NCBI GenBank assembly: GCA_036477295.1
Contig: JAZGDE010000046.1
Coordinates: 13,135-77,134 of the forward strand
Length of the DNA stretch: 64,000 bases
Origin: Bacteroidota bacterium
GTDB taxonomy: Bacteria > Bacteroidota > Ignavibacteria > UBA10030 > JAZGDE01
Reading direction: 5' to 3'
In this document: positions 5,552 to 63,578 of the stretch, in pieces
Numbering within the stretch: the stretch's first letter is position 1
Layout of the letters: each line of letters begins with the position of its first letter
Notes under the pieces: model-generated
The model's database searches: none
Told to the model about the DNA's origin: nothing
Seen by the model: only the letters and a program-made list of their open reading frames with translations
Translations under genes and position numbers: made by a program

Positions 5552-6766
5552 ATGAAACGAACAAACCACTTGCCTCGCCCTGTATCCATCGCCACCAAGG
5601 CAATACACGGGACGAGGATGTACCCCCACCGCGGGCCTGTCTCATTCCCCATCTATCAGACTTCGACGTTCCGATTTGAGACCTCCGAGGACGCAATTCG
5701 ACATGCAGAGGGGGATGAATCGGTGTATGTGTACACCAGGTACCACAATCCGACGACGCAAGACGTCGAGGAAAAGCTCGCTCTGATGGAAGATGGAGAA
5801 GCCGCAGCGATCTTTTCGTCGGGAATGGCTGCAATCACGACAGCAATTCTCACGGCGGTCAAGAGCGGGGAAGAACTCGTCAGCACCCCCTCGCTTTATG
5901 GCGGCACGTATCGGTTTTTTCGGGATGTTCTCCCGAATCACCAGATCTGCGTGCGCTATGTGGACCCAGACCACTTGGAAGAACTAGAATCCCTCATCAC
6001 GAAAAAGACACGTCTCGTTTACTTTGAAACGCCGACAAATCCCACGCTGAATCTCATCGACATCGAGCAGCTCGTCCGCCTGACCCAGATGATGCGGAAG
6101 CGGCTTGGCATTCCACTCCTGACGATGATCGATAATACATTCGCGACAACGCTCAATCAGTGTCCCTTTGATTTTGGAGTCGATGCCGTGGTGGAGAGTG
6201 CAACGAAATACCTCGGCGGCCACAGCGATATCATCGCTGGGGTGGTAGTTGGTAGGAGAGATTTTACCAAGAGAGTAAAAACGAGTGCGAAGTACTACGG
6301 CGGCTGCGCTGACCCGTTCGCTTCCTATCTTCTCTTGCGAAGCCTCAAAACGTTTGAGCTTCGCGTTGAACGCCAGAACGAAAACGCCTTGGCACTGGCA
6401 GGCTTCTTCGAAAAGCACCCGAAGGTGAAGCATGTCCTCTATCCCGGACTTCCCTCCCATCCGAAACACCAGCTGGCCAGGAAGCAGATGAGGAACGGAT
6501 TCGGGGGGATCGTCACGATCGAATTGAAGGGTGGGGTGAAAGCTGCTGTGAAGGTGTGCAATCGCCTCCGCATCGCGATCAATGCGATGTCGCTCGGGGG
6601 CGTCGAAACGCTCGTGAGCATTCCCGTGTATTCATCCCATGTCAAGATGACTCCTGACGAGCTGCAACGTCACGGCGTCACACCGGGGATGCTGAGGATT
6701 TCCGTTGGCGTTGAAGCGGTAGAGGACTTGATGGCGGATTTTGAGGAGGCATTGAGATTCGTCTAG
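5552..6766 (+). CDS. Cys/Met metabolism PLP-dependent enzyme (cystathionine gamma-synthase/beta-lyase or methionine gamma-lyase family)
   Basis: 404 aa. Characteristic YTRYHNPT, SATKYLGGHSD (PLP lysine region), ISVGVE near the C-terminus. Confidence 0.8.
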   Translation: MKRTNHLPRPVSIATKAIHGTRMYPHRGPVSFPIYQTSTFRFETSEDAIRHAEGDESVYVYTRYHNPTTQDVEEKLALMEDGEAAAIFSSGMAAITTAILTAVKSGEELVSTPSLYGGTYRFFRDVLPNHQICVRYVDPDHLEELESLITKKTRLVYFETPTNPTLNLIDIEQLVRLTQMMRKRLGIPLLTMIDNTFATTLNQCPFDFGVDAVVESATKYLGGHSDIIAGVVVGRRDFTKRVKTSAKYYGGCADPFASYLLLRSLKTFELRVERQNENALALAGFFEKHPKVKHVLYPGLPSHPKHQLARKQMRNGFGGIVTIELKGGVKAAVKVCNRLRIAINAMSLGGVETLVSIPVYSSHVKMTPDELQRHGVTPGMLRISVGVEAVEDLMADFEEALRFV

Positions 6767-6871
6767 AACTGCCGCGGCTGTCGAGGGATGTCCACTCACT
6801 GAGACAGCAGAAGCCCATGCGCTTTACTTAAAACCGCATCCCTTGCAGACAACCGGAAGGCATGGAGAATC

Positions 6872-7411
6872 ATGCAGGTCGGAACTCTGGCGAATTCTCT
6901 CTGGGAGGAAAACAAATTCTGGGTACTCGCGCGGTCACGAAATCTCTACTATGACATCGCCGCAACTCTCGCAGACAAAACGTACGATCAGACATATCGC
7001 CTCCTCGAGCTAGCTTCGGCAATCCCAGAGTACAATTTCCAGCATGCAGCCGACCAGGTATGGGGATGTCTTCAAGAGATTGTAGGGGAAAAGGAGAGAC
7101 AAGAGTGGGATGTTCTCGAAGATATTGGAGACATCCTTACGAAGAAAGAATTTCTCTGGCAGCTCATCTTGCGGTACCGGGTCGTGTACCTGCTGAACTG
7201 TAGGCTCTTTTTTGACATCAACCCGTTTGACCGATTTGTCTTCGCGGCCGGCAGCCAGAAGAAGCTTTATCTGTGGAATAGAATTCGGGTGATGGAGATC
7301 GACGTCCAGCACCTCATCAAAAAATCCGGCCGCCTACACGATCCGAACTACCTTTTAACCATTCTCGTCAACGGTCATCTCTACCCAAACCCGAAACTGG
7401 AAACTCGGTGA
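6872..7411 (+). CDS. Hypothetical protein, no recognisable family
   Basis: 179 aa. Codon usage looks coding. No motif I can assign. Lies in the same small inter-operon gap as the DUF559 gene. Confidence 0.45.
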   Translation: MQVGTLANSLWEENKFWVLARSRNLYYDIAATLADKTYDQTYRLLELASAIPEYNFQHAADQVWGCLQEIVGEKERQEWDVLEDIGDILTKKEFLWQLILRYRVVYLLNCRLFFDINPFDRFVFAAGSQKKLYLWNRIRVMEIDVQHLIKKSGRLHDPNYLLTILVNGHLYPNPKLETR

Positions 7412-7450
7412 CGGACCTCTCCCCGCGCGGGAGCATGGAGAAGTGCGCTG

Positions 7451-7535
7451 CTCTCACCCCGGCCGCTCAACACCACAAACCCCTCTCTCGAAAACGAGAG
7501 AGGGATGATTAACAATCACAGTGCCGAGGTGGGAG
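7451..7535. repeat. 85-bp structured repeat element, copy A (terminal inverted ends ctctcacc/ggtgggag, internal hairpin cctctctcgaaaacgagagagg)
   Basis: First 52 nt differ at 1 position from copy B at 8000. Lies immediately 3' of the DUF559 gene stop. On the minus-strand RNA the hairpin is followed by GGUUUGUGGUGU. Confidence 0.6.
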
Positions 7536-7536
7536 G

Positions 7537-7932
7537 CTATTCAAGGACTGATTGTCGTTTAAATGACAGAATTTTTTCAAGCACGCCCTTGAGATCCTCG
7601 CTCACCGCATCGTTCTTGACCCTCAAAACTCGAAGATCTCTCTTTTGGATCTCTGCGAAGCGTCCGTCGTCATAGGACTTCTGCTCGCGATCATCATGGA
7701 CGCTTCCTTCGAGCCCGATGACGAGCCTATGCTCTGCACAGTAAAAATCCACAATATATCTTCCGATCGGATGTTGACGGAGAAAGCGGAGTCCACCAAG
7801 TTTTCGATTTCTGAGCTCCTCCCACAACAGCTTCTCTGCAGGGGTTAACCGTTTTCTCAGATCACGCGCGATCTCTCTGATTTTTCGTGGATCGGTGCCC
7901 ATTGTGCATCGGATGAGGGGGAACAGCTCCAC
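7537..7932 (-). CDS. DUF559 endonuclease-fold (Vsr-like) domain protein
   Basis: Matches the YcjD/DUF559 pattern: LTPAEKLLWEELRNRKLGGLRFLRQHPIGRYIVDFYC...RVLRV. An alternative start is at M11 (position 7902). Confidence 0.8.
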   Translation of the reverse strand: MELFPLIRCTMGTDPRKIREIARDLRKRLTPAEKLLWEELRNRKLGGLRFLRQHPIGRYIVDFYCAEHRLVIGLEGSVHDDREQKSYDDGRFAEIQKRDLRVLRVKNDAVSEDLKGVLEKILSFKRQSVLE

Positions 7933-7998
7933 GAACGTAGGAAGTCAGTATCTCAATGTCAACATTCGACTGTAAACAGACTTGGGAATGAGGTTGAA

Positions 7999-8085
7999 CC
8001 TCTCACCCCGGCCGCTCGACACCACAAACCCCTCTCTCGAAAACGAGAGAGGAGTAATCGACGATCACAACGCTCGGGTGAGAGG
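7999..8085. repeat. 85-bp structured repeat element, copy B (perfect 10-bp terminal inverted repeat cctctcaccc/gggtgagagg, same internal hairpin)
   Basis: Direct-orientation copy of the 7451 element, immediately 3' of the MDR oxidoreductase stop (8086). Confidence 0.6.
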
Positions 8086-9120
8086 TCATTCCCCAACCCG
8101 AAGTACTATCTTGCCGAAATGCTTTCTCTCTTCCATCCGGCTCTGGGCTTCAGCAGCCTGAGCGAGAGGAAACACCGAATCGACGACTGGCTTGAGTTGT
8201 CGTGACGGAAAAAAACTCAGGACGCGGATCAGCTCAGATGTTTTCCCCATGTACGAACCGTAAACTGTGAGGTGACGGGAGAATATATATCGGAGGTCCG
8301 CTGAAACGATTCCACCCGCCGTCACCCCGCAGGTTACCATTCGACCCTTCCGCCGAAGGAGCGCAACGCTCTTCTCGAACACCACGCCGCCGATGTGTTC
8401 GATCACGATGTCCACCCCCTGCTTCGCGGTAAGTCGACGCACTTCAGCCACGAAATCCGTGGTGCGGTAGTTCACCGTTTCATCCGCACCGAGTTGCTTT
8501 GCTTTCTCGAGTTTCTCGTCGCTCCCGGCAGTCGTGATGATGCGGGCACTGAACATCTTCGCGATTTGAATCGCTGCGCTTCCCACGCCGCTTCCCGCAC
8601 CATGGACCAACACACATTCCCCCGTCTGCACCTTCGCCAATCCAACCAGCATATGCCAGGCCGTCAGGAAAACGAGAGGTACCGCGGCTGCCTCCTCGAA
8701 GCTGAGTCCTTCCGGAATCGGAAGAACATTTGATGCGGGAACTTTAACGAACTCCGCATAGGTACCGTGCTCTTTCATACCGAGAACGTGGTATGTCGAA
8801 CAGACATTGTCATCGCCTGCCCGGCAGGCAGAGCAAGTCCCGCAGCTCAGGCCAGGAGAGATCAGCACACGATCACCGACCTTCACGTTGCTGACTCCGA
8901 TACCGATTTCCGAGACAATTCCGGAACCGTCTGACCCCGGGATGTGCGGAAGCGGAGTGGGCCAGTTGGGGATGCCCCGGCGAATCCAGAGATCAAGGTG
9001 GTTGAGCGCTGCCGCTTTAAGCTTGACGAGGACCTCGTTTGGACCGAACGTGGGAGTGGGCACCTCACCGTACTTCAGAACTTCAGGGCCACCATGTTGT
9101 TGAAAAAGGATCGCTTTCAT
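8086..9120 (-). CDS. Zinc-binding medium-chain dehydrogenase/reductase (quinone oxidoreductase / alcohol dehydrogenase family)
   Basis: 344 aa. GroES-like N-domain with Cys cluster CGTCSAC, Rossmann VHGAGSGVGSAAIQ. Confidence 0.8.
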   Translation of the reverse strand: MKAILFQQHGGPEVLKYGEVPTPTFGPNEVLVKLKAAALNHLDLWIRRGIPNWPTPLPHIPGSDGSGIVSEIGIGVSNVKVGDRVLISPGLSCGTCSACRAGDDNVCSTYHVLGMKEHGTYAEFVKVPASNVLPIPEGLSFEEAAAVPLVFLTAWHMLVGLAKVQTGECVLVHGAGSGVGSAAIQIAKMFSARIITTAGSDEKLEKAKQLGADETVNYRTTDFVAEVRRLTAKQGVDIVIEHIGGVVFEKSVALLRRKGRMVTCGVTAGGIVSADLRYIFSRHLTVYGSYMGKTSELIRVLSFFPSRQLKPVVDSVFPLAQAAEAQSRMEERKHFGKIVLRVGE

Positions 9121-9525
9121 GGAGATCTTCTTCTCTCAAATCCTCAATCGTCTCATGAATCCTCAACGTTACCTCGCCGAGGTTTCCACACACATCAGTT
9201 GCCGAGAATCTCAGGAACCGAATTCCAAGTTCCTCTCAGATGCTCCGTTGTAAATGCGAGTCATTTTGGCAACCTCCCCTCCTTACTAAGGATGGGAAAT
9301 CTCGAGGCGTACCTTGTCCCCCTTGATAAGGGGGACTTCGGGACAGGCCTTCACGCGAAAACGGCAGACAGGCATTCATCAGAGACCTCTTGGACAGCAG
9401 TTACAACATACACAAAATCAATGAACGATCCGCAATGAAAATACGAGCGGTGAGGGTCGGCCAGCACGCTGCACGAGGCCTTTGAGAAATGATGGTGCTC
9501 GCAGGAGTATCTTAAAGTGCGAGTC

Positions 9526-10065
9526 CTACGTTGAGCCGATGTAGAGAGTTCCGGTGTGGACTTTGATCCCAAGCAGTTTCAAATAGAGGAACAGCTGCTC
9601 CTTGTGAATCAGCTGATGCTCCACCATGTGGATACAGAGTCTCCAGATTTTCTGACGGCCAATCATCGGTGAATCCAATTCTTTGTTCCGAAATTCATCC
9701 TCCGTAAGATGCCGGATGGTCTCGATCACCCTCCGCTTGGACTCCTCCAGAATCTCAACCGCCTTCTTGCCAGTTATAGGTTCCGTTCGCCGATTGCGCA
9801 AAAAAATTTCGCGCATCGAGCGAACACCCCAATCGCCCGTGCCAAATCCCCGTGCGTACAGACCAAGTGAGAGGGCAAGATGATGGAGAAGTCGCCCGAG
9901 CGTGAACATACCCTCCACCGGTGCATAGTCGAGTTTGTCGTCTGGCGCCAGCTTCATGAGTGCTTCACAAGGACGGAGCACCCAATCCAGGTACTCAAGA
10001 AATTCTTGCTTTGTCACAGGGAGTGCCTCCGATGGCAAAGTCCCGATGGGGACTTCGTCCATCAC
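9526..10065 (-). CDS. DinB/YfiT-like (DinB_2 superfamily) metal-dependent protein
   Basis: 179 aa, four-helix DinB-like pattern with conserved His residues (HHLALSL, HMVEHQLIH). Confidence 0.6.
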   Translation of the reverse strand: MMDEVPIGTLPSEALPVTKQEFLEYLDWVLRPCEALMKLAPDDKLDYAPVEGMFTLGRLLHHLALSLGLYARGFGTGDWGVRSMREIFLRNRRTEPITGKKAVEILEESKRRVIETIRHLTEDEFRNKELDSPMIGRQKIWRLCIHMVEHQLIHKEQLFLYLKLLGIKVHTGTLYIGST

Positions 10066-37834: not shown

Positions 37835-38900
37835 TCAATTCCTTGAAGCGCACATGGTATCGGTACTCGTGATGAATGTTTGCCCCAACTTGTCCAGAAC
37901 CCCCAGCAGCCTTCGGGATCTTTCCAGGTCTAACTCACCGAACACATCATCGAGCAACACGAGAGGCTTTTCACCCAGGACCCCTTGCAGGTAGAGAAAT
38001 TCTGCAAGCTTCAGAGCAATCAAAAACGTCTTATGCTGACCCTGCGAAGCATAGCGCCGGATGTCAAGCCCATTGATCCGCAGATGGAAATCATCGCGAT
38101 GGGGACCCACCAACGTCGAACCGAATTTCCTCTCTTCCTCTACCCGCTCACCAAGCTCGAGTTGAAGGAGTTGCCCGATCTCTTCCGCCGTCAAACTCCG
38201 GTCAACCTCCTCGAATGGCACATAGGACAGCGCTGGTTCCTCGTCGAGCCCCATGAGCCAGCCGTATGTTTCCATGATGTGATTTCGAAATTCGCCAACA
38301 AACTGCAGACGCTGGGCAACGAGGCGGCTTCTGTACCTGACTAATTGCTCATTCCAGGATTCCAAGGCCTCGGGGCTCACTGAGCGTCCGGCCAAGCCAT
38401 TCGACAGCACTCTGTTCCGCTGCTTCACGACCTTGCGGTACTCGACGAGATCTGCACAATATCCCGCGCTCGCTTGGCAAATAACCAGGTCGACAAACCT
38501 TCGTCGTTCCGCAGGAGCTCCCCGCGTAATGCCACCCTGTTCGGGCCAGAGAATCACAGCCGGATACTTCCCGATCATCGATGACAGTCAGTCGACTCGC
38601 CCTCCGTTGACTCGCAAAAGCTTCTCCCTTCTGATGCCATCGAACCTCACATGAACGACGCTCTTTACTCCGCTGTCCGTCCGGAACTTTCCTTCGACTA
38701 CAAAATAATCCTTCCCGATGGACAGAACAACCGCATCGCTGTCCGCGCTGAAACTCCTCGTCAGCGCCAGAAAGGATATCGCCTCGAGCACACTTGTCTT
38801 GCCGGCCCTGTTCGGTCCGACGATGAGGTTTGCGCGTGGAGCCCACGCAAACACAGAATGCTCGTGATTGCGGAAGTTCTCGTAGGCTCGCTCTAAGGAT
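37835..38900 (-). pseudogene. recF: recF disrupted: in-frame TGA (38588-38590) after ~108 codons, and no start codon for the conserved N-terminal strand
   Basis: Minus-strand translation reads ...RVNGGRVD*LSSMIGKYPAVILWPEQ... in a single frame. Upstream of the first possible start (GTG 38854) the frame encodes SVESLERAYENFRNHEHSVFAWAPRANLIVGPNRAGKT, the conserved RecF N-terminus, with no ATG/GTG/TTG in frame. The ATG just upstream belongs to the dnaN C-terminus (..MPVRLNP*). Confidence 0.75.
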
Positions 38901-40005
38901 TCAACCGAACAGGCATCACAAGCATCAAGAACTCTTCCTGCTCTCTCTGCGATCCAGGCTGAACGAGCGCAGCGCGCGTCGACTCGCTGAACAGGAACAG
39001 CGCTTCGTCAGTATCGATGTGCGACAGAACATCAACGAGGTAAGCCGCGTTAAATCCGATCTCGAGCGGCTCGTAGTCATACTGGCACATCATCACTTCC
39101 CGCGCCTCTCCGCCGAAGTCGATATCCTCAGCGGAAAGCTTCAGCTCGTTTTTCTTCAACGAGAGTCGAACCTGGTGTGTAGTGAGACTCGAATACAGTG
39201 AGACCCGCCGGACCGATGCCAGCATGTCGTTCCTGTTGATCACCATTCGCTTGTCGTTGTCCTTTGGAATCACGCTCTCGTAGTTAGGATACTTCTCCTC
39301 GATTAAGCGCGAGATGAGCGTCGTGTTCCCGAACCGAAACATTACATGGGAATCATTGAGGAAAACGGTGAATGCCGATTCATCCGACGATTTCGCAATG
39401 ATGCTGAGCGCCTTTCCCGGTATCACGATGTCTTTCTCCCCATTTTTCAGGGGACTCTTCCGCTGGCTTAGCTTCACCAAGCGATGCCCGTCTGTCGAGA
39501 CAGCACACAGCTCGTCCTTCTTCATCTGAAATAACACTCCCATCATTGCCGGCCGGAGCTCATCCGTACTCACCGCAAACACTGTTTTACTGATCATTCG
39601 GCGCAGTATCTCTGCCGGCAACGTGATCTGTTCGTCCCCTTTAATCTGAGGTACGCTCGGGAACTCCTCGCTCGATTCACCAGTCAGTCGATACTCACCG
39701 GTCTCCGTCACGATCGTGACTTTGTTTGAAGGATCTGCAGTCAGCGTCACCTGCGTCTCCGGGAGTGCACGTACTGTCTCGACCACCCGACGCGCCGGCA
39801 CTGCAATCTTGCCGTCTTCGATACCCTTGACCTTGGTCGTGACCGACAGTGAAAGCTCGAGATCTGTCGCAGTAATCTTCAACTCGTCGCCTTCAAGCTC
39901 GAGCAGGAGATTTTCTAGGATAGGGAGTGTTGATTTCGATGGAACTACTCCACTTGTTTTGGAGAGTGCTTTTTGAAGTTCAGTGCTCGAAACGGTGAAT
40001 TTCAT
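38893..40005 (-). CDS. dnaN: DNA polymerase III beta sliding clamp
   Basis: 370 aa, DnaN three-domain pattern, MKFTVSSTELQKALSK start. Confidence 0.9.
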   Translation of the reverse strand: MKFTVSSTELQKALSKTSGVVPSKSTLPILENLLLELEGDELKITATDLELSLSVTTKVKGIEDGKIAVPARRVVETVRALPETQVTLTADPSNKVTIVTETGEYRLTGESSEEFPSVPQIKGDEQITLPAEILRRMISKTVFAVSTDELRPAMMGVLFQMKKDELCAVSTDGHRLVKLSQRKSPLKNGEKDIVIPGKALSIIAKSSDESAFTVFLNDSHVMFRFGNTTLISRLIEEKYPNYESVIPKDNDKRMVINRNDMLASVRRVSLYSSLTTHQVRLSLKKNELKLSAEDIDFGGEAREVMMCQYDYEPLEIGFNAAYLVDVLSHIDTDEALFLFSESTRAALVQPGSQREQEEFLMLVMPVRLNP

Positions 40006-40679
40006 CCGTTACCTCCTGTCTGGCCAGTTTGAAAAATCTAACCTTGAAATTTACGAATTTCATCCCCCAAATTCAAGCGCCGAAACTTGCTAACTCCAAT
40101 ATTTTCCAACATGTTATCCCTCCTGGCACTTCATCTTTAGCCTCCCATCACCCCAGACCACATTTATTATCCAGTCTGGACTGAATGTTGTTCTTCACAA
40201 GCATTCAGTTTCTATTCTCGCAGAGCTTTTAACTCCCCAAACATCTTATTCACCGATCACATTTGCCTCCTCCCAGCCGTTTGCTAACACACAGCAAGCC
40301 AAGACCACTTGCATTCTTTGAGAACAATATTGTACCGGCGAGTTTTGAACCAAACCACTTCATTATTGTTATAAGCCTTATAAAATGAAAAAGATTAGTA
40401 TTACTATTAGACCCGTGAGTATGTTAATAACTGTTTAATATTCGCGGATTTGACCGTAATGGTGGGAAATTTGTGTTCCTCATATAGCTAAAGAGTCTGG
40501 ATAATGGTCTTACTTTCCCACATCCGGATTGTGATTCCGATACGACAGGATTGTGAAATCAAGTTGTGAACAGTGTTTCTGGATCCTATTCACAACGTGT
40601 CAACAAGATACTGAGGGAGAAAACAAAGCCCAACCTTGGAAGGATGGGCTTCGCGTGGAAATGGATGAGCGCAAGCGGG
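40006..40679. promoter_or_regulatory. AT-rich 674-bp dnaA-dnaN intergenic region, candidate oriC DNA-unwinding module
   Basis: Markedly AT-rich relative to flanks (ttattgttataagccttataaaatgaaaaagattagtattactattag...). Degenerate DnaA-box-like 9-mers (ttatccagt, tattcacaa). No protein-coding ORF. Confidence 0.4.
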
Positions 40680-42155
40680 TTAATGGTAGAGCTGCAACCG
40701 TTTTTTGATGTCCTGGACGGTACGACTATAGCGTTCGTCCGTTTTCATCAGATCTTCAACGGACTGGTATGCATGGATGACCGTGCTATGGTCGCGTCCC
40801 CCAAAATGGAGGCCAATCGTTTTCAAGGAAGAGTTTGTCAGTTCTTTTGCGATGTACATGGCGATCTGTCGCGCGATTACGACTTCTTGTTTCCTGGTTT
40901 TTGCGCGAATGAGATCCTCGGGCGTGCCGAAATATTCGGAGACGGTGCGTTGAATATCTTCGATTGTCACATGGGCGCGGATGTCTCCGACAACGGTCTT
41001 CACGACGTGACGCGCAAGGTCGAGGGTGATCTCTTCGTTCTTGAGCGACGCGTGTGCCAGCAAGCCGATCAGGCAGCCTTCCAGTTCACGAATGTTGGAA
41101 GTCACGTGCGTTGCGATAAATTCGATGACGTCTTGCGGTAATTCAACGCCGTCATCCTCGGCTTTCTTCTGGAGGATGGCGATCCGGGTCTCGAGTTCAG
41201 GAGGCTGAATATCAGCGGTCAAGCCCCACTGGAATCGGGAAACGAGACGCTCGTCGAGGCCTTTCAGCTCCTTTGGCGAGCGATCACACGAGAGGACGAT
41301 CTGCTTCCCGAATTGGTGGAGAGTGTTGAACGTATGGAAGAAAATCTCCTGTGTTTTTTCCTTGCCGGCGAAGAACTGTATGTCATCGACGATCAGCAAG
41401 TTGATACTACGGTAAAAACTGGAGAACTCGCTGATGCGGTCGCTCTGGATTGCATCGACGAATTCGATCGTAAATTTCTCGCTGGACACGTAGAAAACTT
41501 TGTCCGCGCGTTGATGGTTTAGAGCATGGCTCCCGATGGCCTGGATCAGGTGAGTTTTGCCGAGTCCGACGCCGCCGTAGATCACGAGCGGGTTAAAGGA
41601 TGTTCCACCTGGGTTATTGGCGACTGCAACCGCAGCAGCGCGCGCGAGCTGATTACTGTCTCCTTTGATGAAGTTCTCAAATGTGTAGCGGGCGTTCAGG
41701 AAACTCCCGGTCGCTCTCCCGGCGAGCGCTGCAGGTGTTGGTGAAGTTGCCGGCGGGAGGGAATCCTTATGATATGTCGGCGGTGGACCGAGTACCTGTT
41801 TGGCAGATGGAATCGTGATCGCGTGTCTCGTAAGTTCGTCCGGGCCATCCTCTACCAGAACGGAGTACACGAGTCGGGCGTTTTCGCCGATGACCTCAGC
41901 AAGTGTCCTGTTGATGAGGGAGTAATAGTGCTCCTCCAGCCATTCGTAGAAGAATTGACTTGGTACTCGAATCGTGAGCTTATTATCCTCCAGTTTCAGT
42001 GGAACGGTTGATTCAAACCAAGTCTTAAAAGTTTGCTGGTTGATATTGTCTTTGATAATCGCTAGACATCGCGACCACACCTGCTTGACTTGGTTTTCAT
42101 TGAGTTGCTCGACCTTCCCGACTGCATCCAGTGCGGCATTCTCTTCTAGTTTCAT
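40680..42155 (-). CDS. dnaA: Chromosomal replication initiator protein DnaA
   Basis: 491 aa. AAA+ GGVGLGKTHL, DDIQF Walker B, C-terminal DnaA-box-binding HTH. Confidence 0.95.
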   Translation of the reverse strand: MKLEENAALDAVGKVEQLNENQVKQVWSRCLAIIKDNINQQTFKTWFESTVPLKLEDNKLTIRVPSQFFYEWLEEHYYSLINRTLAEVIGENARLVYSVLVEDGPDELTRHAITIPSAKQVLGPPPTYHKDSLPPATSPTPAALAGRATGSFLNARYTFENFIKGDSNQLARAAAVAVANNPGGTSFNPLVIYGGVGLGKTHLIQAIGSHALNHQRADKVFYVSSEKFTIEFVDAIQSDRISEFSSFYRSINLLIVDDIQFFAGKEKTQEIFFHTFNTLHQFGKQIVLSCDRSPKELKGLDERLVSRFQWGLTADIQPPELETRIAILQKKAEDDGVELPQDVIEFIATHVTSNIRELEGCLIGLLAHASLKNEEITLDLARHVVKTVVGDIRAHVTIEDIQRTVSEYFGTPEDLIRAKTRKQEVVIARQIAMYIAKELTNSSLKTIGLHFGGRDHSTVIHAYQSVEDLMKTDERYSRTVQDIKKRLQLYH

Positions 42156-42563
42156 GCTTTTGTCTCGGCTGAAAAACGTGAAAAAAGAGTCCCCACACCT
42201 GCAAACAACTTATTCACATGGGCAGCGCCATTGCCCTCGCTTGACCACTCTATGGCCAAATGGGAACTGACAACGTGGACACCCCTTGTTCACGAGAGCA
42301 AGTTATCTCTAACCTCTTAAACAATCTAGGGTTATGGGAGGAGGCTGAGCGGTTATCCACAAGGTATTGGCGGCGCGTGAAGGCCAACCGGCACGTCAAA
42401 ACTGCACCTTGAACAAGGCCCAAAAAGTAAGTAACATTTTATCAACAAACGATTTATGCCGTAATTCATACAGATTATACAAAGTTTCGGGTGTGTAGGC
42501 AAGGGAAAAATTTTTGTTTTTTTCGGTTTGAGTTGTATTTGTGGCACATTTTTTATATGTTGA
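42156..42563. promoter_or_regulatory. dnaA/rpmH divergent control region with DnaA boxes and AT-rich tract (oriC / dnaA autoregulation candidate)
   Basis: Perfect TTATCCACA at 42336-42344. One-mismatch boxes TTATTCACA (42204-42212) and TTATCAACA (42439-42447). AT-rich run 42450-42560. Confidence 0.55.
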
Positions 42564-42647
42564 ATGTCGTTCGGCGAGAGGATTGCTGCTAGAGCAAACC
42601 TCTTTTTTTTCGTCAAGGGAGTATTCAGTAGGAGATGCATATCACAG

Positions 42648-42794
42648 ATGAAGCCGACGTATCAACCGAGCATCCGGAAGCGAAAAAATACACACGGCTT
42701 TCGTGCGCGCATGAAATCGAAGAGCGGCCGGAGAGTGGTGGCGCAGCGCAGAGCGAAGGGTCGTTGGAAGTTAACGGTCAGCGACGAACGATAA
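42648..42794 (+). CDS. rpmH: 50S ribosomal protein L34
   Basis: [44 protein letters not shown] preceded by AGGAG. The ORF-track ORF is N-terminally over-extended. Confidence 0.9.
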
Positions 42795-42814
42795 TCAACC
42801 GGCGAACGATTCCT

Positions 42815-43261
42815 ATGTCGGCGGAGGTTCTCAAGTCGCACGGCACCGGGAGGACTCTCAAGAAGCATGAAATCCTTCGCGGGCATAGACAATTTGACCG
42901 TGCGATAACAGGGGGGAAATCGCTCTTCGGAGAGCTTCTGCGCTGCTTCGTTTCTCCTTCGGGCTTTGGAGGAGATCTCGGGCGAGACATGGTGAAGATC
43001 GGGTTCGCCGTTAGCCGGAAGATCCGAAAATCCAGCGTGCGAAATCGACTCAAGCGGATAATGCGGGAAGTCTATCGGATGCACAAGGAGCGGCTGCATC
43101 AGCTCGCGATACGGAATTCTCAGCGACTTGAGCTCGTGCTGGTGTTCAGGGGAAACACTGACAGCGACCCCAAGAAAGTTCCATACGAACTCATCGAAAA
43201 GGATTTTCTGCGCATCGTCGATCGACTCGAGCGCGGCTTGGACGGAGCGGGATTCGTATGA
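42815..43261 (+). CDS. rnpA: Ribonuclease P protein component
   Basis: Start placed at [10 protein letters not shown] after the rpmH stop. [13 protein letters not shown]...[24 protein letters not shown] typical of RnpA. Confidence 0.85.
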
Positions 43262-57398: not shown

Positions 57399-59468
57399 TT
57401 ACTTGCCTTTCAGCACAGCAACCGCTCTCTCGGCGGCTTCAAGTAATGGCTTGGTCGAAATCGGAGAACCCACAGCCTGCTCCATCCACAGATCTGGTGT
57501 GATCGATCCAATCATGCACATCCTTTCCATTGCTTCCGCCAGGCTGTGTTTCTTCATATGCTCTTCGATCTGGAACGCGATGATATGACCAAGGGGATAA
57601 TCCGGAGTGTACATTCCTCCATCCACCATGTGGGAGTAGACGGCGAGGAGCAGAACGTCGCGGACTCCGAGGACGGGGGCGAAATACTCGTTCCAGACAT
57701 CCTTTGCAATCGCGATAACTGCCTCACGCATCTCTGCAGGAGTTGCGTCGGGGTGTTCATACATCCAGCGCCATACCTTCATGTCGACGAGGGCAACGCC
57801 GCCGATTTCGTAGGTGGACCATAGTACGTCGAGTGCTTTGAGGTGCTCTGCATGTTGCTGTTCTTTTCCGACCCCGAGAATTTCAAGGTCGCGCGATTGG
57901 AAAACGAACGCGAAGCCCTCCGTGAACGCTGTGTTCGGGACACCGCGCAGGAGAGTGTAATCGATCATGTTGAAGGAGATCACCTGCTCCACGTTGTGAC
58001 CGAGCTCATGGATGGCGATGTTGTACCCTTTGTAGTTCATCCCGCTTTGCGGGATCCGCGTTCGGAGGCGCGCTTTGTCGACGAGTCTTCCTGGTCGATA
58101 AGCGTGTCCAGCGCCGCGCGCTGGGTCGACGGCAATTTTCGACGTGAGAAATTGGCTCTTTTGCCTTGAAAAGCCAAGGTTCTTGAGAATGTTGGGTATA
58201 TCCGTCTGAAACGACGAGACGGTCGTGTAGCGCGACGCTACGATGCGGTCGAGTTCCTGTTCCGTGTACGCTCCACGAGGCTTGAATCCGTTGTACCAGA
58301 TGTCAAACGGTCGGAGTTCCCTGCCGAGGCGCTTTTTGATGATTGCGGCAACTTGTTTGACGACGGGAGAGTCGAGAACTGACCTCAGTAGCTGCTCGAC
58401 TTTTGGTTCCGGAATCTCACGATCGCGCTGGAATCGCCGGTCGATTTTTGTTGGCGCGTCCGGATCGTAAGCGTCGACCTCCCGTTCGGCCTTGAAGGTA
58501 TTCTGCCACATCGTGTAGCGGCGGTCAGGCTCGCGTTCGCTCGTACGCGTCCTTCCTGACCTCAACGTGACGATGTTCGAACTTGGATTCCAGTTGACGT
58601 CTGGGTTATTAATGACGACTGAGGGGATTTGCTGAGTGATGATTCTCTCCATGATGAGTTGAATCATCTCCTGGTGTGGGAGTCCGTCCTTGTTCGCGTA
58701 CTGAGCCTTGAGCTCATCCCGCAACCCCCAGTGACTGATGAGTTTCAATCCTTCAGGGAACAACCGCTCGCCGTTCTCCGTGAGCACATTATGCATGAAG
58801 ATGTTGTAGGAGTTAATGTAATTGTCCGCGTTTGTATATGCCTGCGTCACTTTTTGTTCGACCGCCGCCGGAACGCGGGTGGAGAAAATTTGCGCGAGTC
58901 TTGTTTCCGCCCACTCCTGACGAGTCCACGACGGAGCGAGGGTAAGGCGCTCTTCGAGGGTGTAGAACGGGAAGTTCAGGAGGACGATGAAGGCGATCTT
59001 CGATTTGAAGAGATCCTCGCTCAGGTGAGCTGATGGTGAAAACTCTCCGAACAGATAATCGACGGGGAGAATGGGTCCGAGGTCGAGGTCAAGGGGTCTG
59101 TCGATGTCGCGCTTTAATTCCAGCATGTGTCCATAGACGAGCATCCAGTTCTCTTGTAATCGGTTGAACGTTTTCCGGAGCAGCTGCGGGTCTGCAATGA
59201 AATTGTCACGGCAGAACTCTCCGAAGTTTTCCTCGCTGCCGTCTTCAGCGCGCCACAGTCGCGCAACCTGTCGGACTCCTTTCTCGATTCGGCTTGCTTG
59301 AGACGGTCCGTAGCGGCTGATGAGTTCGCTCGTGACAGTTTGCATGGTTCCCTCGCTGATTGACTCCAAAGCATTCTGCGGAAAACTCTCCGTCGATATC
59401 AGGATAGCGATAGTGATCGTGCACAGTGCGAAACGTGTCGTCTTTGGACCGGTCGGGTGAAGAGACAT
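57399..59468 (-). CDS. Secreted HExxH zinc-metallopeptidase-like protein (gluzincin-like; family uncertain)
   Basis: 689 aa with signal peptide. Single HELGHNV motif with a downstream Glu (TEGFAF) about 28 residues later. Confidence 0.55.
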   Translation of the reverse strand: MSLHPTGPKTTRFALCTITIAILISTESFPQNALESISEGTMQTVTSELISRYGPSQASRIEKGVRQVARLWRAEDGSEENFGEFCRDNFIADPQLLRKTFNRLQENWMLVYGHMLELKRDIDRPLDLDLGPILPVDYLFGEFSPSAHLSEDLFKSKIAFIVLLNFPFYTLEERLTLAPSWTRQEWAETRLAQIFSTRVPAAVEQKVTQAYTNADNYINSYNIFMHNVLTENGERLFPEGLKLISHWGLRDELKAQYANKDGLPHQEMIQLIMERIITQQIPSVVINNPDVNWNPSSNIVTLRSGRTRTSEREPDRRYTMWQNTFKAEREVDAYDPDAPTKIDRRFQRDREIPEPKVEQLLRSVLDSPVVKQVAAIIKKRLGRELRPFDIWYNGFKPRGAYTEQELDRIVASRYTTVSSFQTDIPNILKNLGFSRQKSQFLTSKIAVDPARGAGHAYRPGRLVDKARLRTRIPQSGMNYKGYNIAIHELGHNVEQVISFNMIDYTLLRGVPNTAFTEGFAFVFQSRDLEILGVGKEQQHAEHLKALDVLWSTYEIGGVALVDMKVWRWMYEHPDATPAEMREAVIAIAKDVWNEYFAPVLGVRDVLLLAVYSHMVDGGMYTPDYPLGHIIAFQIEEHMKKHSLAEAMERMCMIGSITPDLWMEQAVGSPISTKPLLEAAERAVAVLKGK

Positions 59469-59741
59469 TATAAGCCTCCCGTGAGTGAGACAATCCAGTG
59501 AGTGTGGCCAAACGCTAAAGAAAAGGAATCGCAGCCTGAAGCGGCCAATCGATGCAACTGAACGTGGGCTAACGTAATAATATACAACTGCGTGCTTTGA
59601 CAGTCAAGAATCATTATCGTTTTCGCTCATCGTCAGCGCGTAGTAAGCGTGTGAATACGATTCTTCTTGAGTTTGATGATGACATCGTATAGATTTTGTT
59701 CCCAAATGGAGAGCATAGAACGAAACGGGAGGTAATAAATA

Positions 59742-60626
59742 ATGAAAAGAAACAACGTGGTCAAAATGCCGTTGCTGGGGTGTTCGCTTCTCTTCGTCGC
59801 AACACAATCAGCTTTTGCTCAACAGAGCCAATCTCCCATTAACTACTGGAATCCTGCCTGGTCGCCTGATAGCTCTCGGATTATGTTCGCGTCAAGTCTG
59901 GACGGTGATGGTGTCCTCGATCTCTACATCATGAACGCTGACGGTTCCGAGACTACTCGGTTAGAGGATAAGGCTCAGCAAGGCTCTTGGTCACCTGATG
60001 GTTCGAAGATCGTTTTCATGTCTGAGGCGGATGGTGACTTCGAAATCTACGTCATGGACGCCGATGGCTCCAATCGGATCAATTTAACCAACAATTCTGA
60101 AGTAGATTATGGCCCTGCTTGGTCTCCTGATGGCAAGAAGATTATTTTCCAATGGAAGCCTGGGCCAGGCAGGTACAATCACGATCTGCGCATCGTGAAT
60201 GCGGATGGCTCAAATCTCATACATTTAACTGACCAAACGACGAATGATGTATTTCCATCCTGGTCACCAGATGGGAAACACATTGCTTTTGCGAGGGGTG
60301 AATGGCGCAAATTCCACCTGTATCTTATGGATACTGACGGGTCCAACGTAACTCACTTAATTGATAACGCGGACACCCCTCGCTGGTCACCAGATGGCAC
60401 TAAAATCGTTTTCAGATTAAAGAGGAAACGCAATGCTGACATTTATGCCATAGACGCGGACGGTTCGAACTTGACTCGCTTAACCCACGATCCAGGTCCT
60501 GATTCCACGCCGGTTTGGTCCCCTGACGGGAACGAGATCACGTTTGTTTCTAGAAGAGAAGATGTCTGGGGCATTTTTGTCATGAATGCGGATGGCACTG
60601 ACCAAACTAGACTAACCCCAAAGTAG
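59742..60626 (+). CDS. TolB-like PD40 beta-propeller repeat protein, secreted
   Basis: 294 aa. Signal peptide, about six WSPDG(S/K/T)KI(V/I)F PD40 repeats. Lower GC than surrounding genes. Confidence 0.75.
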   Translation: MKRNNVVKMPLLGCSLLFVATQSAFAQQSQSPINYWNPAWSPDSSRIMFASSLDGDGVLDLYIMNADGSETTRLEDKAQQGSWSPDGSKIVFMSEADGDFEIYVMDADGSNRINLTNNSEVDYGPAWSPDGKKIIFQWKPGPGRYNHDLRIVNADGSNLIHLTDQTTNDVFPSWSPDGKHIAFARGEWRKFHLYLMDTDGSNVTHLIDNADTPRWSPDGTKIVFRLKRKRNADIYAIDADGSNLTRLTHDPGPDSTPVWSPDGNEITFVSRREDVWGIFVMNADGTDQTRLTPK

Positions 60627-60994
60627 ATACGGAGAGCTCTTCAACTCCACAGTTGGGAAGAGGTTTCACAGCCTGAGCATGATGGGAGGTAGGACGAAAT
60701 GGAATCGTGGTCGACATCCGGTTGTTCGAGAGACGTCAGAGTGATCCTTTTTTCATTTTAACACAACGGATCTTTCTTTCCAGATGGGTGAGCGTTTGAA
60801 GTACTCTTAAATTACGCATTTCATTAGATCGTCGTCTCAACGATATACGAAGCGCGACACAGTGATAAAATAGATTGACTTTCTGTGTAGAACAGCAGAA
60901 CATTTTCAGCTTATTTAATGTAAATTATCAGTTTGGAGAAGCTGTTGAATCGGAGAAAAAACCGTCTGCAGTGAGTCTTATGGAATTCTTCAGG

Positions 60995-61828
60995 TTACTC
61001 TTTTCCTTTTTCTGCGGTGACCGTTATGCTAACAACGGATCGAAGGTTCCTTTCCACCTCCTCCATCGGTATGTTCAGGCTCTCGAGGATCCTGTGGAGA
61101 GTTGGATCGTTGACGCTTGACTCAGCGGGAAATGGTTTCTCATCGAGTATTTTGATCTCATGGAAGCCCGCTTTTCTTATCGCTCCGACATAGTGGTCCT
61201 TTAGCATTGCCCCTGAGATGCACCCAACATATGCGTCGAGCGAGTCCCGTATGAAATTGGGAAGCTCTTTCATCAGTACAATGTCAGATACCATCAGCTT
61301 CCCTTGAGGTTTAAGAACCCTGAATGCCTCTTGGAAGACTCTTGTCTTGTCAGGGGAAAGGTTGATGACGCAGTTCGAGATGATCACGTCTACGGAATCA
61401 TCAGCAACAGGTAAGTTTTCAATCTCCCCAAGCCGAAAGTCTACGTTTTTGAAGCTTCCCTTCCGGGCATTTTCTCTTGCCCTGTCAAGCATCTCCGGTG
61501 TCATATCCACACCTATGACTTTTCCCTTCTTTCCGACCTTGTTGGCGGCGAGGAAACAATCGAAACCGCCTCCTGCCCCGAGGTCGAGAACCGTTTCGCC
61601 TTCTCGCAACGATGCCAGAGCGGTAGGATTCCCACAACCGAGTCCAAGGTTTGCCCCCTCGGGAACAGATTTCAGCTCCTCATCCGTATATCCGATCCTC
61701 CTGGTAATATCCTCTCCAAGGTCCGAGCTCTCACAGCAGGAGCTCGCAGGAGCAAAGTAAGAGCTGCCCTTTTGTGCTATTTTTGCGTAGCCTTCTCTTA
61801 CGACTTTGGTGATCTCTTGTTCTTTCAT
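60995..61828 (-). CDS. arsM: Arsenite S-adenosylmethionine methyltransferase (ArsM-type)
   Basis: 277 aa. N-terminal SCCES As-binding cysteines, SAM motif VLDLGAGGGFD, conserved ISNCVINL cysteine. Confidence 0.75.
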   Translation of the reverse strand: MKEQEITKVVREGYAKIAQKGSSYFAPASSCCESSDLGEDITRRIGYTDEELKSVPEGANLGLGCGNPTALASLREGETVLDLGAGGGFDCFLAANKVGKKGKVIGVDMTPEMLDRARENARKGSFKNVDFRLGEIENLPVADDSVDVIISNCVINLSPDKTRVFQEAFRVLKPQGKLMVSDIVLMKELPNFIRDSLDAYVGCISGAMLKDHYVGAIRKAGFHEIKILDEKPFPAESSVNDPTLHRILESLNIPMEEVERNLRSVVSITVTAEKGKE

Positions 61829-61846
61829 TTTAATCCCCTGATTCTT

Positions 61847-62122
61847 TCAAAGAATACCTTTCATCACTGGCCCGAGCATCGCCTTCACCATTTCTGTAAG
61901 ATCTTCAACCTTAATGAGAGAAATACAGCATATCTTACCATCCTTCTCGCAACCGATCACAGCTAACTTATCGCCAGGGCGAATTTTTGCCATCTCTCTT
62001 ATCTCTTTGGGAAGCACCATCTGTCCCCGATCATCGACGGTGATTACTGATTCTACTTTACAGCAACCAAGTCCCCTTGCCGCCCTAACAGGACGACGTC
62101 GATTTGTACCTTTCTTGGCCAT
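61847..62122 (-). CDS. AbrB/MazE/SpoVT-fold small protein with two vicinal Cys pairs
   Basis: 91 aa. VDDRGQMVLPKEIREMAKIRPGDKL swapped-hairpin motif. Cys at GCCK, IGC, ICCI. Confidence 0.55.
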   Translation of the reverse strand: MAKKGTNRRRPVRAARGLGCCKVESVITVDDRGQMVLPKEIREMAKIRPGDKLAVIGCEKDGKICCISLIKVEDLTEMVKAMLGPVMKGIL

Positions 62123-62576
62123 GTTCGTAACCTCCAGGGGGGATGTTATTCGGGATATTTGTGCTTTTCTGAATAATCAGAATACACTGAATAATATACT
62201 TAATTGGAAAGATCTTGTCAAGTCTTTTCCAAGATTTTTTTTGCCCGTTCGCGTGGATCCCAGGAATGTTGTGGCCTGGTAAATTAAGGGCGAAAGGCCC
62301 GAAATGATGGCCGCAGGCGTGGGATGTCAGACCTACCGGATGTTGGTTGCGGTTCGTGGCTAGGGTGACGACAAGAAACCTTCCACATGCATACTGAGAA
62401 GTCCCGTTCGCCAGCATAGGTCGAGCGCTCGGAAGCACGGTCTTGCTCCTCGAGAGAGTGGATTTTCTAGAAGTCAGCCAGTGGTACCTTCCTTGCTATT
62501 CGCGGTGCAATCCGCTACTTTAGTGAACAGATCATGGTTCATTTGCTCATTTGACAAGTTCGAGAGCAGGTGTCAT

Positions 62577-63578
62577 GGCATGAAAGCGGTGTGGCTTGAC
62601 GGGCGTGGGCCAATCGAGAATGAACCACTGTGCTACCGAGAGGTTGAAGATCCGGTCCCCCGCGACGGCGAGATTTTGATCAAGATCAAGGCTTGTGGAA
62701 TCTGTCACACGGACCTCCACATCGTCGAGGGTGAACTCCCTCCACAAAAATCTCCTGTCATTCCTGGCCACCAAATTGTCGGTGAGGTGGCGAAAACCGG
62801 TCCGGAAGCTTCAAGATTTCAGACTGGCGATCGTGTTGGGGTGCCCTGGCTTCACTGGACATGCGGCAAGTGCGGATACTGCACGCGCGGCTTGGAGAAT
62901 CTTTGCGAGAACGCCCGCTTCACCGGATACCATGTCGATGGCGGATTCGCCCAGTATGCTGTCGCGCCAGAGTCGTTCGTGTATGCCATTCCCGAGAAGT
63001 TTTCCGATGTCGAAGCTGCACCGCTGCTGTGTGCTGGCATCATCGGATTCCGAGCACTCCGACTGTGCGAGATTCGACCCGGAGATCGGCTGGGGTTGTT
63101 TGGCTTTGGGGCGTCGGCACACCTGGCCATTCAGGTTGCGCGGCATTGGGGCTGCGAAGTCTACGTGTTCACGAGAAGCGACGAACACCGGAAGCTCGCA
63201 CAGGAGCTTGGGGCAGCGTGGACGGGTCGGGCCGAGGATCGTGCGCCGCATCCGGTCGACAGTGCTGTGATGTTTGCACCGGCGGGCCACCTTGTGCACC
63301 ATGCGCTTCAGGCACTCCGAAAAGGTGGGACTCTCGCCCTGGCTGGTATTTATATGACGCCGGTTCCCGAACTTGAGTACAAACTCCTCTATGACGAGAG
63401 GACCATGCGCAGCGTTGCGAACAGCACCCGGCAGGACGCGATTGATTTCCTGAAGGTTGCAGCGGAAATCCCGGTTTGCACAGAGGTGGAGACGTTCCCG
63501 CTCAAGGAAGCAAATCGAGTCCTGAGGCTTTTGAAACAGAGCAAGATTCGGGCCGCGGGAGTCTTTGAGATCGGATAA
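62577..63578 (+). CDS. Zinc-dependent NAD(P) alcohol dehydrogenase
   Basis: Start at MKAVWLDGRG. GICHTDLH catalytic Zn site, structural Zn CGKCGYC, Rossmann GFGASAHLAIQ. Confidence 0.8.
   Translation, partial: GMKAVWLDGRGPIENEPLCYREVEDPVPRDGEILIKIKACGICHTDLHIVEGELPPQKSPVIPGHQIVGEVAKTGPEASRFQTGDRVGVPWLHWTCGKCGYCTRGLENLCENARFTGYHVDGGFAQYAVAPESFVYAIPEKFSDVEAAPLLCAGIIGFRALRLCEIRPGDRLGLFGFGASAHLAIQVARHWGCEVYVFTRSDEHRKLAQELGAAWTGRAEDRAPHPVDSAVMFAPAGHLVHHALQALRKGGTLALAGIYMTPVPELEYKLLYDERTMRSVANSTRQDAIDFLKVAAEIPVCTEVETFPLKEANRVLRLLKQSKIRAAGVFEIG

Follow-up and report, generated by a model that had tools for sequence, protein, structure and literature searches.

The window analysed here comprises 64,000 nucleotides of contig JAZGDE010000046.1, assigned to a Bacteroidota bacterium, and carries two closely spaced genes on its minus strand. 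The first, hgcC (61847-62122), encodes a 91-aa protein of the SpoVT/AbrB fold with two vicinal cysteine pairs (C20-C21 and C65-C66), and the second, arsM (60995-61828), encodes a 277-aa arsenite methyltransferase that depends on S-adenosylmethionine (SAM). The 18-nt spacer between them (61829-61846) contains a GGGGA ribosome-binding site and no terminator-like site, and an array of TCWGA pentamers (W being A or T) lies at the promoter upstream of hgcC. The present text deals with these genes and this array, with the function that HgcC may have and with the loci at which its relatives occur in other genomes.

Profile searches place the 91-aa protein in a catalogued, uncharacterised family, NF040962 ("HgcAB-associated protein HgcC"), whose model it matches with 117 bits (curated cut-off 70; E = 2.4e-34) over positions 1-69 of 70. 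The SpoVT/AbrB domain was recognised by PF04014 (32.6 bits, cut-off 24.7) and by TIGR01439 (38.3 bits, cut-off 28.3). No match was obtained to the ArsR/SmtB models of Pfam and NCBIfam (winged-helix HTH_5), and by these models HgcC does not belong to the ArsR family. More than 2,700 relatives were found at E <= 1e-3, the closest of which (95% identity) comes from a Bacteroidota metagenome-assembled genome (MAG) and bears the NCBI name HgcC. An exact-sequence search of assemblies gave no record of the window protein itself. The original prediction had described the gene as possibly an arsenite-responsive regulator of a new type standing in place of ArsR; it does precede arsM with no ArsR beside it, but the family as such was already on record.

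No solved structure was found for members of the HgcC family. In a profile search of the PDB, HgcC matched SpoVT and AbrB-family regulators, and an AlphaFold (AF2) model of the protein gave a predicted local distance difference test score (pLDDT) of 84-92 for residues 20-80. The top Foldseek matches of this model were SpoVT, C68, AbrB-N, Sso7c4 and MazE (probability 0.77-1.0). HgcC shares with these proteins the DNA-binding fold and the motif D-x-G-x-(V/I)-x-(L/I)-P-K-E-(I/L)-R; it differs from them in that the aligned solved homologues have no cysteine pairs and in that it adds a conserved C-terminal helix (residues 72-90), in which L83 and P85 are invariant and G84 and M87 nearly so.

Homologous loci were collected in two independent scans. 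The first covered one genome per GTDB species and gave at least 562 relatives of HgcC; the best 80 loci were examined together with three close relatives. Loci that recur below for comparison with the window are L001 (~94% nucleotide identity), L002 and L003 (HgcC 78% identical). The sample of the first scan was biased toward the ArsM-linked query, and for that reason the second scan, of metagenome contigs, was seeded with seven HgcA-linked HgcCs; it gave another 80 loci. The pooled set thus consists of 163 loci; 150 upstream regions from both scans and 153 HgcC homologues were compared.

The cysteines of the window protein lie in the motifs GCCK (C20 and C21), ICCI (C65 and C66) and IGC (C59), all of which had been pointed out beforehand as reminiscent of arsenic-binding sites. 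Every one of the 153 homologues has C21 and C66, while 136 have C20 and 142 have the C65-C66 pair; the two vicinal pairs are conserved. The same cannot be said of C59, which is replaced by tryptophan in the closest homologue (95% identity) and in the majority of the rest; it is lineage-specific, and no weight is therefore given to the IGC cysteine. With C21 and C66 universal and C20 and C65 present in about nine-tenths of the members, the conserved residues would allow As(III) to be held by three thiolates (S3 coordination).

The downstream gene was identified as arsM by NF008823 (359 bits, cut-off 263), by the SAM motif VLDLGAGGG and by its match to CrArsM (5evj, E = 1e-34). Its residues C31, C32, C65 (GCGNP), C91, C153 (SNCVINL) and C203 (GCISGA) are kept in 59-64 of the 64 HgcC-linked ArsMs, and C31/C32, C65, C153 and C203 align to the As(III)-binding cysteines of solved ArsMs; we take the cysteines of the window protein to be the equivalents of C44, C72, C174 and C224 in CmArsM. 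Judged by these features, the window arsM is canonical, and methylation of arsenite is predicted for its product. It belongs to a HgcC-linked subfamily whose members are 56-68% identical across Bacteria and Archaea. The spacing between hgcC and arsM is equally tight in most loci, and no intrinsic terminator was found after the window arsM.

The association of the two genes is by no means restricted to the window. In the pooled 163 loci, roughly three of every four hgcC genes are followed by a gene for ArsM and roughly one of every seven by a gene for HgcA. In the first scan, arsM lay directly next to hgcC and on the same strand in 64 of 83 cases, scoring above 200 bits against the window ArsM and, with two exceptions, above 300; hgcA followed directly in 7, the order hgcC-(methyltransferase/arsM)-...-hgcA-hgcB was seen in 4 and a contig edge intervened in 5. 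The second scan gave ArsM in 51 of its 80 loci (54 on inspection), HgcA in 13 and a contig end in 8; even the seeding with HgcA-linked sequences thus returned mostly ArsM partners. The identity of the partner HgcA and HgcB proteins was confirmed by NCBIfam (427 and 111 bits, respectively), and where the downstream sequence is readable, ArsM or HgcA follows hgcC in about 90% of loci. About 13 of 82 loci have a gene for Acr3, ArsC, ArsR, an ArsP-like permease or an ArsE-type thioredoxin no farther than 8 kb from hgcC. The arsenic connection, which had been suggested from the window alone, is consequently borne out by a massive co-occurrence with arsM. A division of HgcC into partner-specific clades was rejected: in a neighbour-joining tree, which is weak for so short a protein, the HgcA-linked sequences are interspersed with the ArsM-linked ones.

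The family name stems from a different context. In 2023, Zhang et al. described a gene similar to AbrB, PrlF and MazE that stands immediately before hgcA, chiefly in archaeal genomes, and suggested that it regulates hgcAB (PMC10349881); in that study, eight methylators confirmed by experiment have the gene in this position. Earlier, a conserved "putative regulator" had been described upstream of hgcAB in 112 genomes (McDaniel et al. 2020; PMC7438021), and this is probably the same HgcC family. The copies of NF040962 found before hgcAB agree with the window gene in family, size, cysteine pairs, position as first gene and upstream operator. Unlike the published context, however, the window and about three quarters of the 163 loci pair hgcC with ArsM and have no hgcAB nearby; the name HgcC therefore describes a minority context. 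Within the window, neither HgcA nor HgcB was detected by a six-frame scan for the cap-helix motif or by phmmer with HgcA and HgcB representatives, and it is arsM, not the namesake partner, that stands downstream. The two published accounts contain no operator, no cysteine analysis and no link to arsM, and in the searchable literature, which is an incomplete body, no other paper touching the family came to light and nothing was found on the predominance of arsM, the cysteine census or the operator of HgcC.

The promoter of the window hgcC is close to the sigma-70 consensus. On the minus strand, a consensus scan (11/12, 17-nt spacer) identified a -35 box TTGACA (62216-62221) and a -10 box TATATT (62193-62198), and hgcC and arsM would form a two-gene operon transcribed from this promoter (TTGACA-17-TATATT, 62221-62193). 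The -10 box directly abuts a pentamer TCAGT on the same strand (62186-62190), which agrees with TCWGA in 4/5 positions and begins 9 nt before the core of the putative operator. The core (62168-62181) is a 14-bp palindrome, TCTGA-N4-TCAGA, which reads TCTGATTATTCAGA on the minus strand. It contains the palindrome ctgaataatcag (62169-62180), the sole occurrence of CTGAWWWWTCAG in 64 kb, where 0.04 would be expected. A downstream box, AAATATCCCGAAT (62148-62160, minus strand), follows and is partly kept in L001 and L003; a comparison of 33 archaeal and 30 bacterial loci identified it as the counterpart of the archaeal TTTAAATA TATA box with a fourth TCWGA pentamer, degenerate in the window. The Shine-Dalgarno sequence GGAGG (62131-62135, minus strand) stands 8 nt before the ATG of hgcC.

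On aligning the window with L001 and L003, it was observed that the proximal ~110 bp are kept (TTGACA-17-TATATT, ATTCAG-N6-CTGATTATTCAG and the invariant GGAGG), and the rest is mostly diverged. The -35 box TTGACA shows no change between the window, L001, L002 and L003, in contrast to the remaining intergenic DNA, which has diverged. The upstream pentamer is kept in L001 and L003, and in 36 of 63 loci a TCAG half-site precedes the core by 6-12 nt. The closest relative is labelled as a Bacteroidota MAG, yet the region 62131-62221 shows a near-consensus sigma-70 promoter (TTGACA/TATATT) and GGAGG; as TTGACA is found again at HgcC loci in many bacterial phyla, the module may carry its promoter with it.

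The original prediction had pointed to a palindrome upstream of the small gene, and ctgaataatcag proved to be part of an operator that is conserved across phyla and domains. Of 64 upstream regions, 46 contain the exact form CTGA-N4-TCAG, most often at -57/-58 from the hgcC start codon; shuffled sequences gave an average of 0.085 regions, and the background rate was 0.004 per 150 bp. Counted over genes, the exact form accompanies 54 of 83 hgcC genes and has 18 other matches in 955 kb. With at most one mismatch, it is present in 139 of the 150 upstream regions of both scans, whatever the partner gene. The operator unit is better described as a pseudo-symmetric TCWGA pentamer that recurs at intervals of 9 bp: of 150 hgcC upstream regions, 78 contain TCWGA-N4-TCWGA, which is met only 4 times in 1.17 Mb of background (and once in the window), and the form with three pentamers occurs in 54 of 150 and never in the background.

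The placement of the array differs between the two domains. In Bacteria, it follows or overlaps a sigma-70-type promoter, and in 27 of 30 loci TTGAC precedes the operator by no more than 50 nt. The archaeal array lies directly upstream of the TTTAAATA TATA box (a TATA-like box occurs within 20 nt downstream in 26 of 33 loci), and a further pentamer stands just downstream of the box. The archaeal palindrome, being upstream of the TATA box, is hence not transcribed, which favours a DNA site over an RNA element. An RNA element in the leader was accordingly rejected, with no Rfam match at E <= 1; the leader hairpin is small (z = -2.3) and consists of the palindrome itself. Furthermore, no gene other than hgcC is linked to the operator in every case, and hgcC always comes first; in the composite loci, no second operator was found before hgcA, which follows tightly.

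Taken together, these data are best explained if HgcC is a thiol-based, likely As(III)-responsive autorepressor that acts on the hgcC-arsM operon through the TCWGA array, a reading to which we assign a probability of about 0.6. The presence of the array in the promoter of its own gene suggests that HgcC may bind DNA sequence-specifically, as a dimer or tetramer; the swapped hairpins of the SpoVT/AbrB fold, arranged as a dimer of dimers, would contact TCWGA pentamers spaced 9 bp apart. Since the array (62148-62190) would cover the -10 box and the transcript start, binding of HgcC would repress its own operon. Binding of a thiophilic metal(loid) by the HgcC thiolates would release the DNA, whereupon ArsM would be made and As(III) methylated at the expense of SAM. 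The same cassette of regulator and operator would drive hgcAB in other genomes. As(III) is the best-supported candidate for the effector because ArsM is the dominant partner, because ars genes recur nearby and because there is a precedent: hgcAB of P. mercurii ND132 is under the control of an ArsR-like regulator that responds to arsenic (10.1101/2022.10.17.512643).

Several observations weigh against this explanation. MAs(III), Hg(II), Sb(III) or a redox signal could take the place of As(III) as effector. The AF2 model, a monomer, gives no indication either way of contact between the two cysteine pairs. Perfect pentamers are present in only about half of the loci. Apart from arsM, the 64-kb window contains no arsenic genes, and phmmer found no homologues of ArsR, Acr3 or ArsC in it. 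A canonical ArsR is encoded within 8 kb of hgcC in 5 loci, divergent and adjacent in three of them (L057, L055 and L068); HgcC is therefore not simply a substitute for ArsR, and at such loci ArsR could act on the promoters. Finally, vicinal cysteine pairs are also a hallmark of the ArsD metallochaperone.

This last point leads to the main rival, in which HgcC, alone or alongside a regulatory function, would possibly serve as an ArsD-like metallochaperone. Its vicinal thiols would take up As(III) or Hg(II) and hand it to ArsM or HgcA, and the upstream motif would be the site of another factor, or HgcC would occupy it only weakly. As the principal function of the protein, this is considered unlikely, though it is the strongest of the alternatives. 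ArsM and HgcA each methylate thiophilic metal(loid)s in a SAM-dependent manner (PMC11588087). The conserved pairs of HgcC have a counterpart in the conserved vicinal pair C31-C32 of ArsM, the C-terminal helix with its invariant L83 and P85 and nearly invariant G84 and M87 could be a docking surface, and ArsR coexists with HgcC in 5 loci. ArsD, too, was first described as a repressor. Set against this, the operator accompanies hgcC across more than 10 phyla and both domains, which no other regulator does, and every solved homologue found is a DNA-binding domain.

A further alternative is that HgcC is a thiol/disulfide redox or sulfide sensor that switches the operon with the redox state of anoxic habitats. 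The conserved cysteine pairs would suit such a role, all hosts are anaerobes from sediments or groundwater according to the record titles, and genes for a nitroreductase (4 loci), an AhpD/CMD protein (3) and an ArsE-type thioredoxin (5) occur at some loci. The strongest and nearly exclusive linkage of hgcC is, however, to ArsM and HgcA and not to redox enzymes, which makes this proposal improbable. That the protein is an orphan antitoxin of the MazE/PrlF type with arsM beside it by chance is hardly credible: it matches PF04014 (MazE_antitoxin), homologues carry names such as "antitoxin PrlF" and the gene has been discussed as toxin-antitoxin (Zhang et al., PMC10349881), but no cognate toxin gene follows (arsM stands downstream in the window, and ArsM or HgcA in ~90% of readable loci), the PrlF model gives 19 bits against a cut-off of 125 and against 117 bits for the HgcC model, and the conserved cysteines are absent from the aligned SpoVT stretches.

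If HgcC is the arsenic-responsive repressor proposed above, the hgcC-arsM pair would be a metal(loid)-responsive operon of repressor and methyltransferase built on the AbrB fold instead of on ArsR. Its layout resembles that of ArsR/SmtB systems such as the arsR-arsM and arsRBC operons and ArsR2 upstream of hgcAB in P. mercurii ND132: a small cysteine-thiolate autoregulator is encoded by the first gene before arsM or hgcAB, the operator overlaps the promoter and derepression by As(III) is probable. The difference lies in the DNA-binding element, which is a winged helix in ArsR/SmtB and a swapped hairpin in HgcC, and in the HgcC operator, which is a TCWGA array. ArsD likewise is small, has functionally important vicinal cysteine pairs, is found in arsenic operons and shares the ambiguity between regulator and chaperone. 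It has a thioredoxin-like fold and serves the ArsA ATPase, in contrast to HgcC with its AbrB fold and its methyltransferase partners. AbrB itself has a loose DNA consensus, unlike the sharply defined pentamer array at HgcC loci.

Some loci depart from the simple two-gene layout. In L055, L057 and L068 (Methanotrichaceae), (arsC-)hgcC-arsM has beside it, in divergent orientation, genes for a canonical ArsR (CVC motif), an ArsP-like permease, an ArsE-type thioredoxin and a DGC-like protein, so that ArsR and HgcC are found together at a single divergent promoter region. In L035 (Nitrospirota, 6222-9600), hgcC-hgcA-hgcB-arsC-acr3 are arranged on one strand, which brings genes for mercury methylation and for arsenic resistance together behind a single HgcC. 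In L144 and L149 (hgcC at 340-564 and 371-595, respectively), hgcC is followed by neither ArsM nor HgcA and instead by three cysteine-rich proteins. One has 219 aa and contains CTPGCGSGCNCG, one is a membrane protein of 183 aa and one has 179 aa and contains CCPTSNSCC; this may point to a third type of thiophilic cargo. A further methyltransferase of smaller size (191-221 aa, only 43-61 bits against ArsM) is found repeatedly, either ~240-320 nt upstream of hgcC, as in L007, L026 and L038 (Aminicenantes) and L051 (labelled Eubacteriales), or between hgcC and hgcA/arsM, as in L061 (a Methanoperedens MAG) and L009 (an unclassified uncultured archaeon). A weak second hgcC-like open reading frame (ORF) of 71 aa (26 bits) lies downstream of arsM in L004 (Thermoplasmata, 9396-9611).

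The region 59469-62480, which includes hgcC, arsM and a neighbouring PD40 gene, had been noted for its low content of guanine and cytosine (GC), and this was confirmed: its GC of 0.473, as compared with 0.533 for the whole window, is the lowest among all 3-kb windows (mean 0.532, sd 0.017), with spacers of 42-49%. The GC at third codon positions (GC3) is 0.515 for PD40, 0.547 for arsM and 0.424 for hgcC, against 0.635 +/- 0.034 for the 40 other genes of the window, which corresponds to z-scores of -3.6, -2.6 and -6.3, respectively. The second-lowest GC in the window is found at 38000-43000, where 3-kb windows of 0.488-0.507 surround the genes 38893-40005 and 40680-42155.

This composition had been taken as a hint of horizontal acquisition, and one reading is that PD40, arsM and hgcC arrived together, recently, as a single genomic islet of 3 kb. 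The composition itself, which L001 shares, speaks for such an origin, and identities of 56-80% for HgcC and ArsM across Bacteria and Archaea imply that the module has spread horizontally in the past. The order ADH-hgcC-arsM (ADH, alcohol dehydrogenase) is, however, kept in L003 at protein identities of 81, 78 and 76%, respectively, so the module has diverged together with its flank; hgcC and arsM are syntenic with ADH in L001 as well. In L003, other genes separate PD40 from arsM, and over 45 loci the GC of the module equals that of its surroundings (0.001 +/- 0.029). No tRNA was found in the region and no flanking repeats apart from coding repeats internal to PD40, and none of the region's ORFs, not all of which were scanned against family libraries, stood out as integrase-like. 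The three genes are compositionally odd, yet they do not appear to be a single imported unit, and a recent arrival of the whole stretch is improbable. The high cross-domain identity does argue that module and operator spread together by horizontal transfer long ago. The GC3 of hgcC is 0.42 in the window and in L001 and 0.58 in L003 (10001-10276), despite the equal divergence of ADH and module.

The PD40 gene (59742-60626, plus strand; PF07676, 158 bits in 6 stretches) encodes a TolB-like propeller of six repeats with an N-terminal signal-like segment and is convergent with arsM. It adjoins arsM in L001 and L002 but not in L003, and it does not recur in the other loci; it is a neighbour only, outside the conserved hgcC-arsM module. 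In L003, arsM is followed by a small AhpD/CMD gene, then by a DUF5916 gene, with PD40 further on. The AhpD/CMD gene of L003 (11214-11471, 85 aa) matches the C-terminal part of NF041537, an ArsM-AhpD "UU" selenoprotein fusion, and AhpD-like genes are also found near hgcC in L064 and L068. On the other side, the ADH ORF that begins at GTG 62481 (365 aa) is probably over-extended across 62481-62579. Its start is likely ATG 62580 (MKAV...), as the homologues in L001 and L003 have 332 aa, and the divergent intergenic region between hgcC and ADH would therefore span ~457 bp. The low-GC stretch is also adjoined by a 689-aa HExxH protein (57399-59468), which is 93% identical in L001 and has no Pfam or NCBIfam match at E <= 0.01.

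The regulation and the native role of hgcAB are open questions in mercury biogeochemistry, and only the ArsR-like regulator of one Pseudodesulfovibrio strain, ND132, has been tested. HgcC is a second and far more widespread candidate regulator, which comes with a concrete operator sequence, and arsM as its main partner strengthens the link between arsenic and mercury. For annotation, this means that the name "HgcAB-associated" is no evidence that a genome encodes mercury methylation. If HgcC senses As(III), a member of the AbrB fold would join the short list of metalloregulator families, and the protein and its operator would make a compact sensor pair for biosensors that fits both bacterial and archaeal promoter architectures. 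A wider proposal, held at slightly less than even odds, is that HgcC is the first member of a structurally new class of repressors that sense metal(loid)s, with the SpoVT/AbrB swapped-hairpin fold, a thiolate site of three to four cysteines and a portable TCWGA operator, and that it controls arsM and hgcAB in both domains. If this is true, the expression of hgcAB in many lineages would depend on arsenic, or more generally on thiophilic metal(loid)s, and not on mercury.

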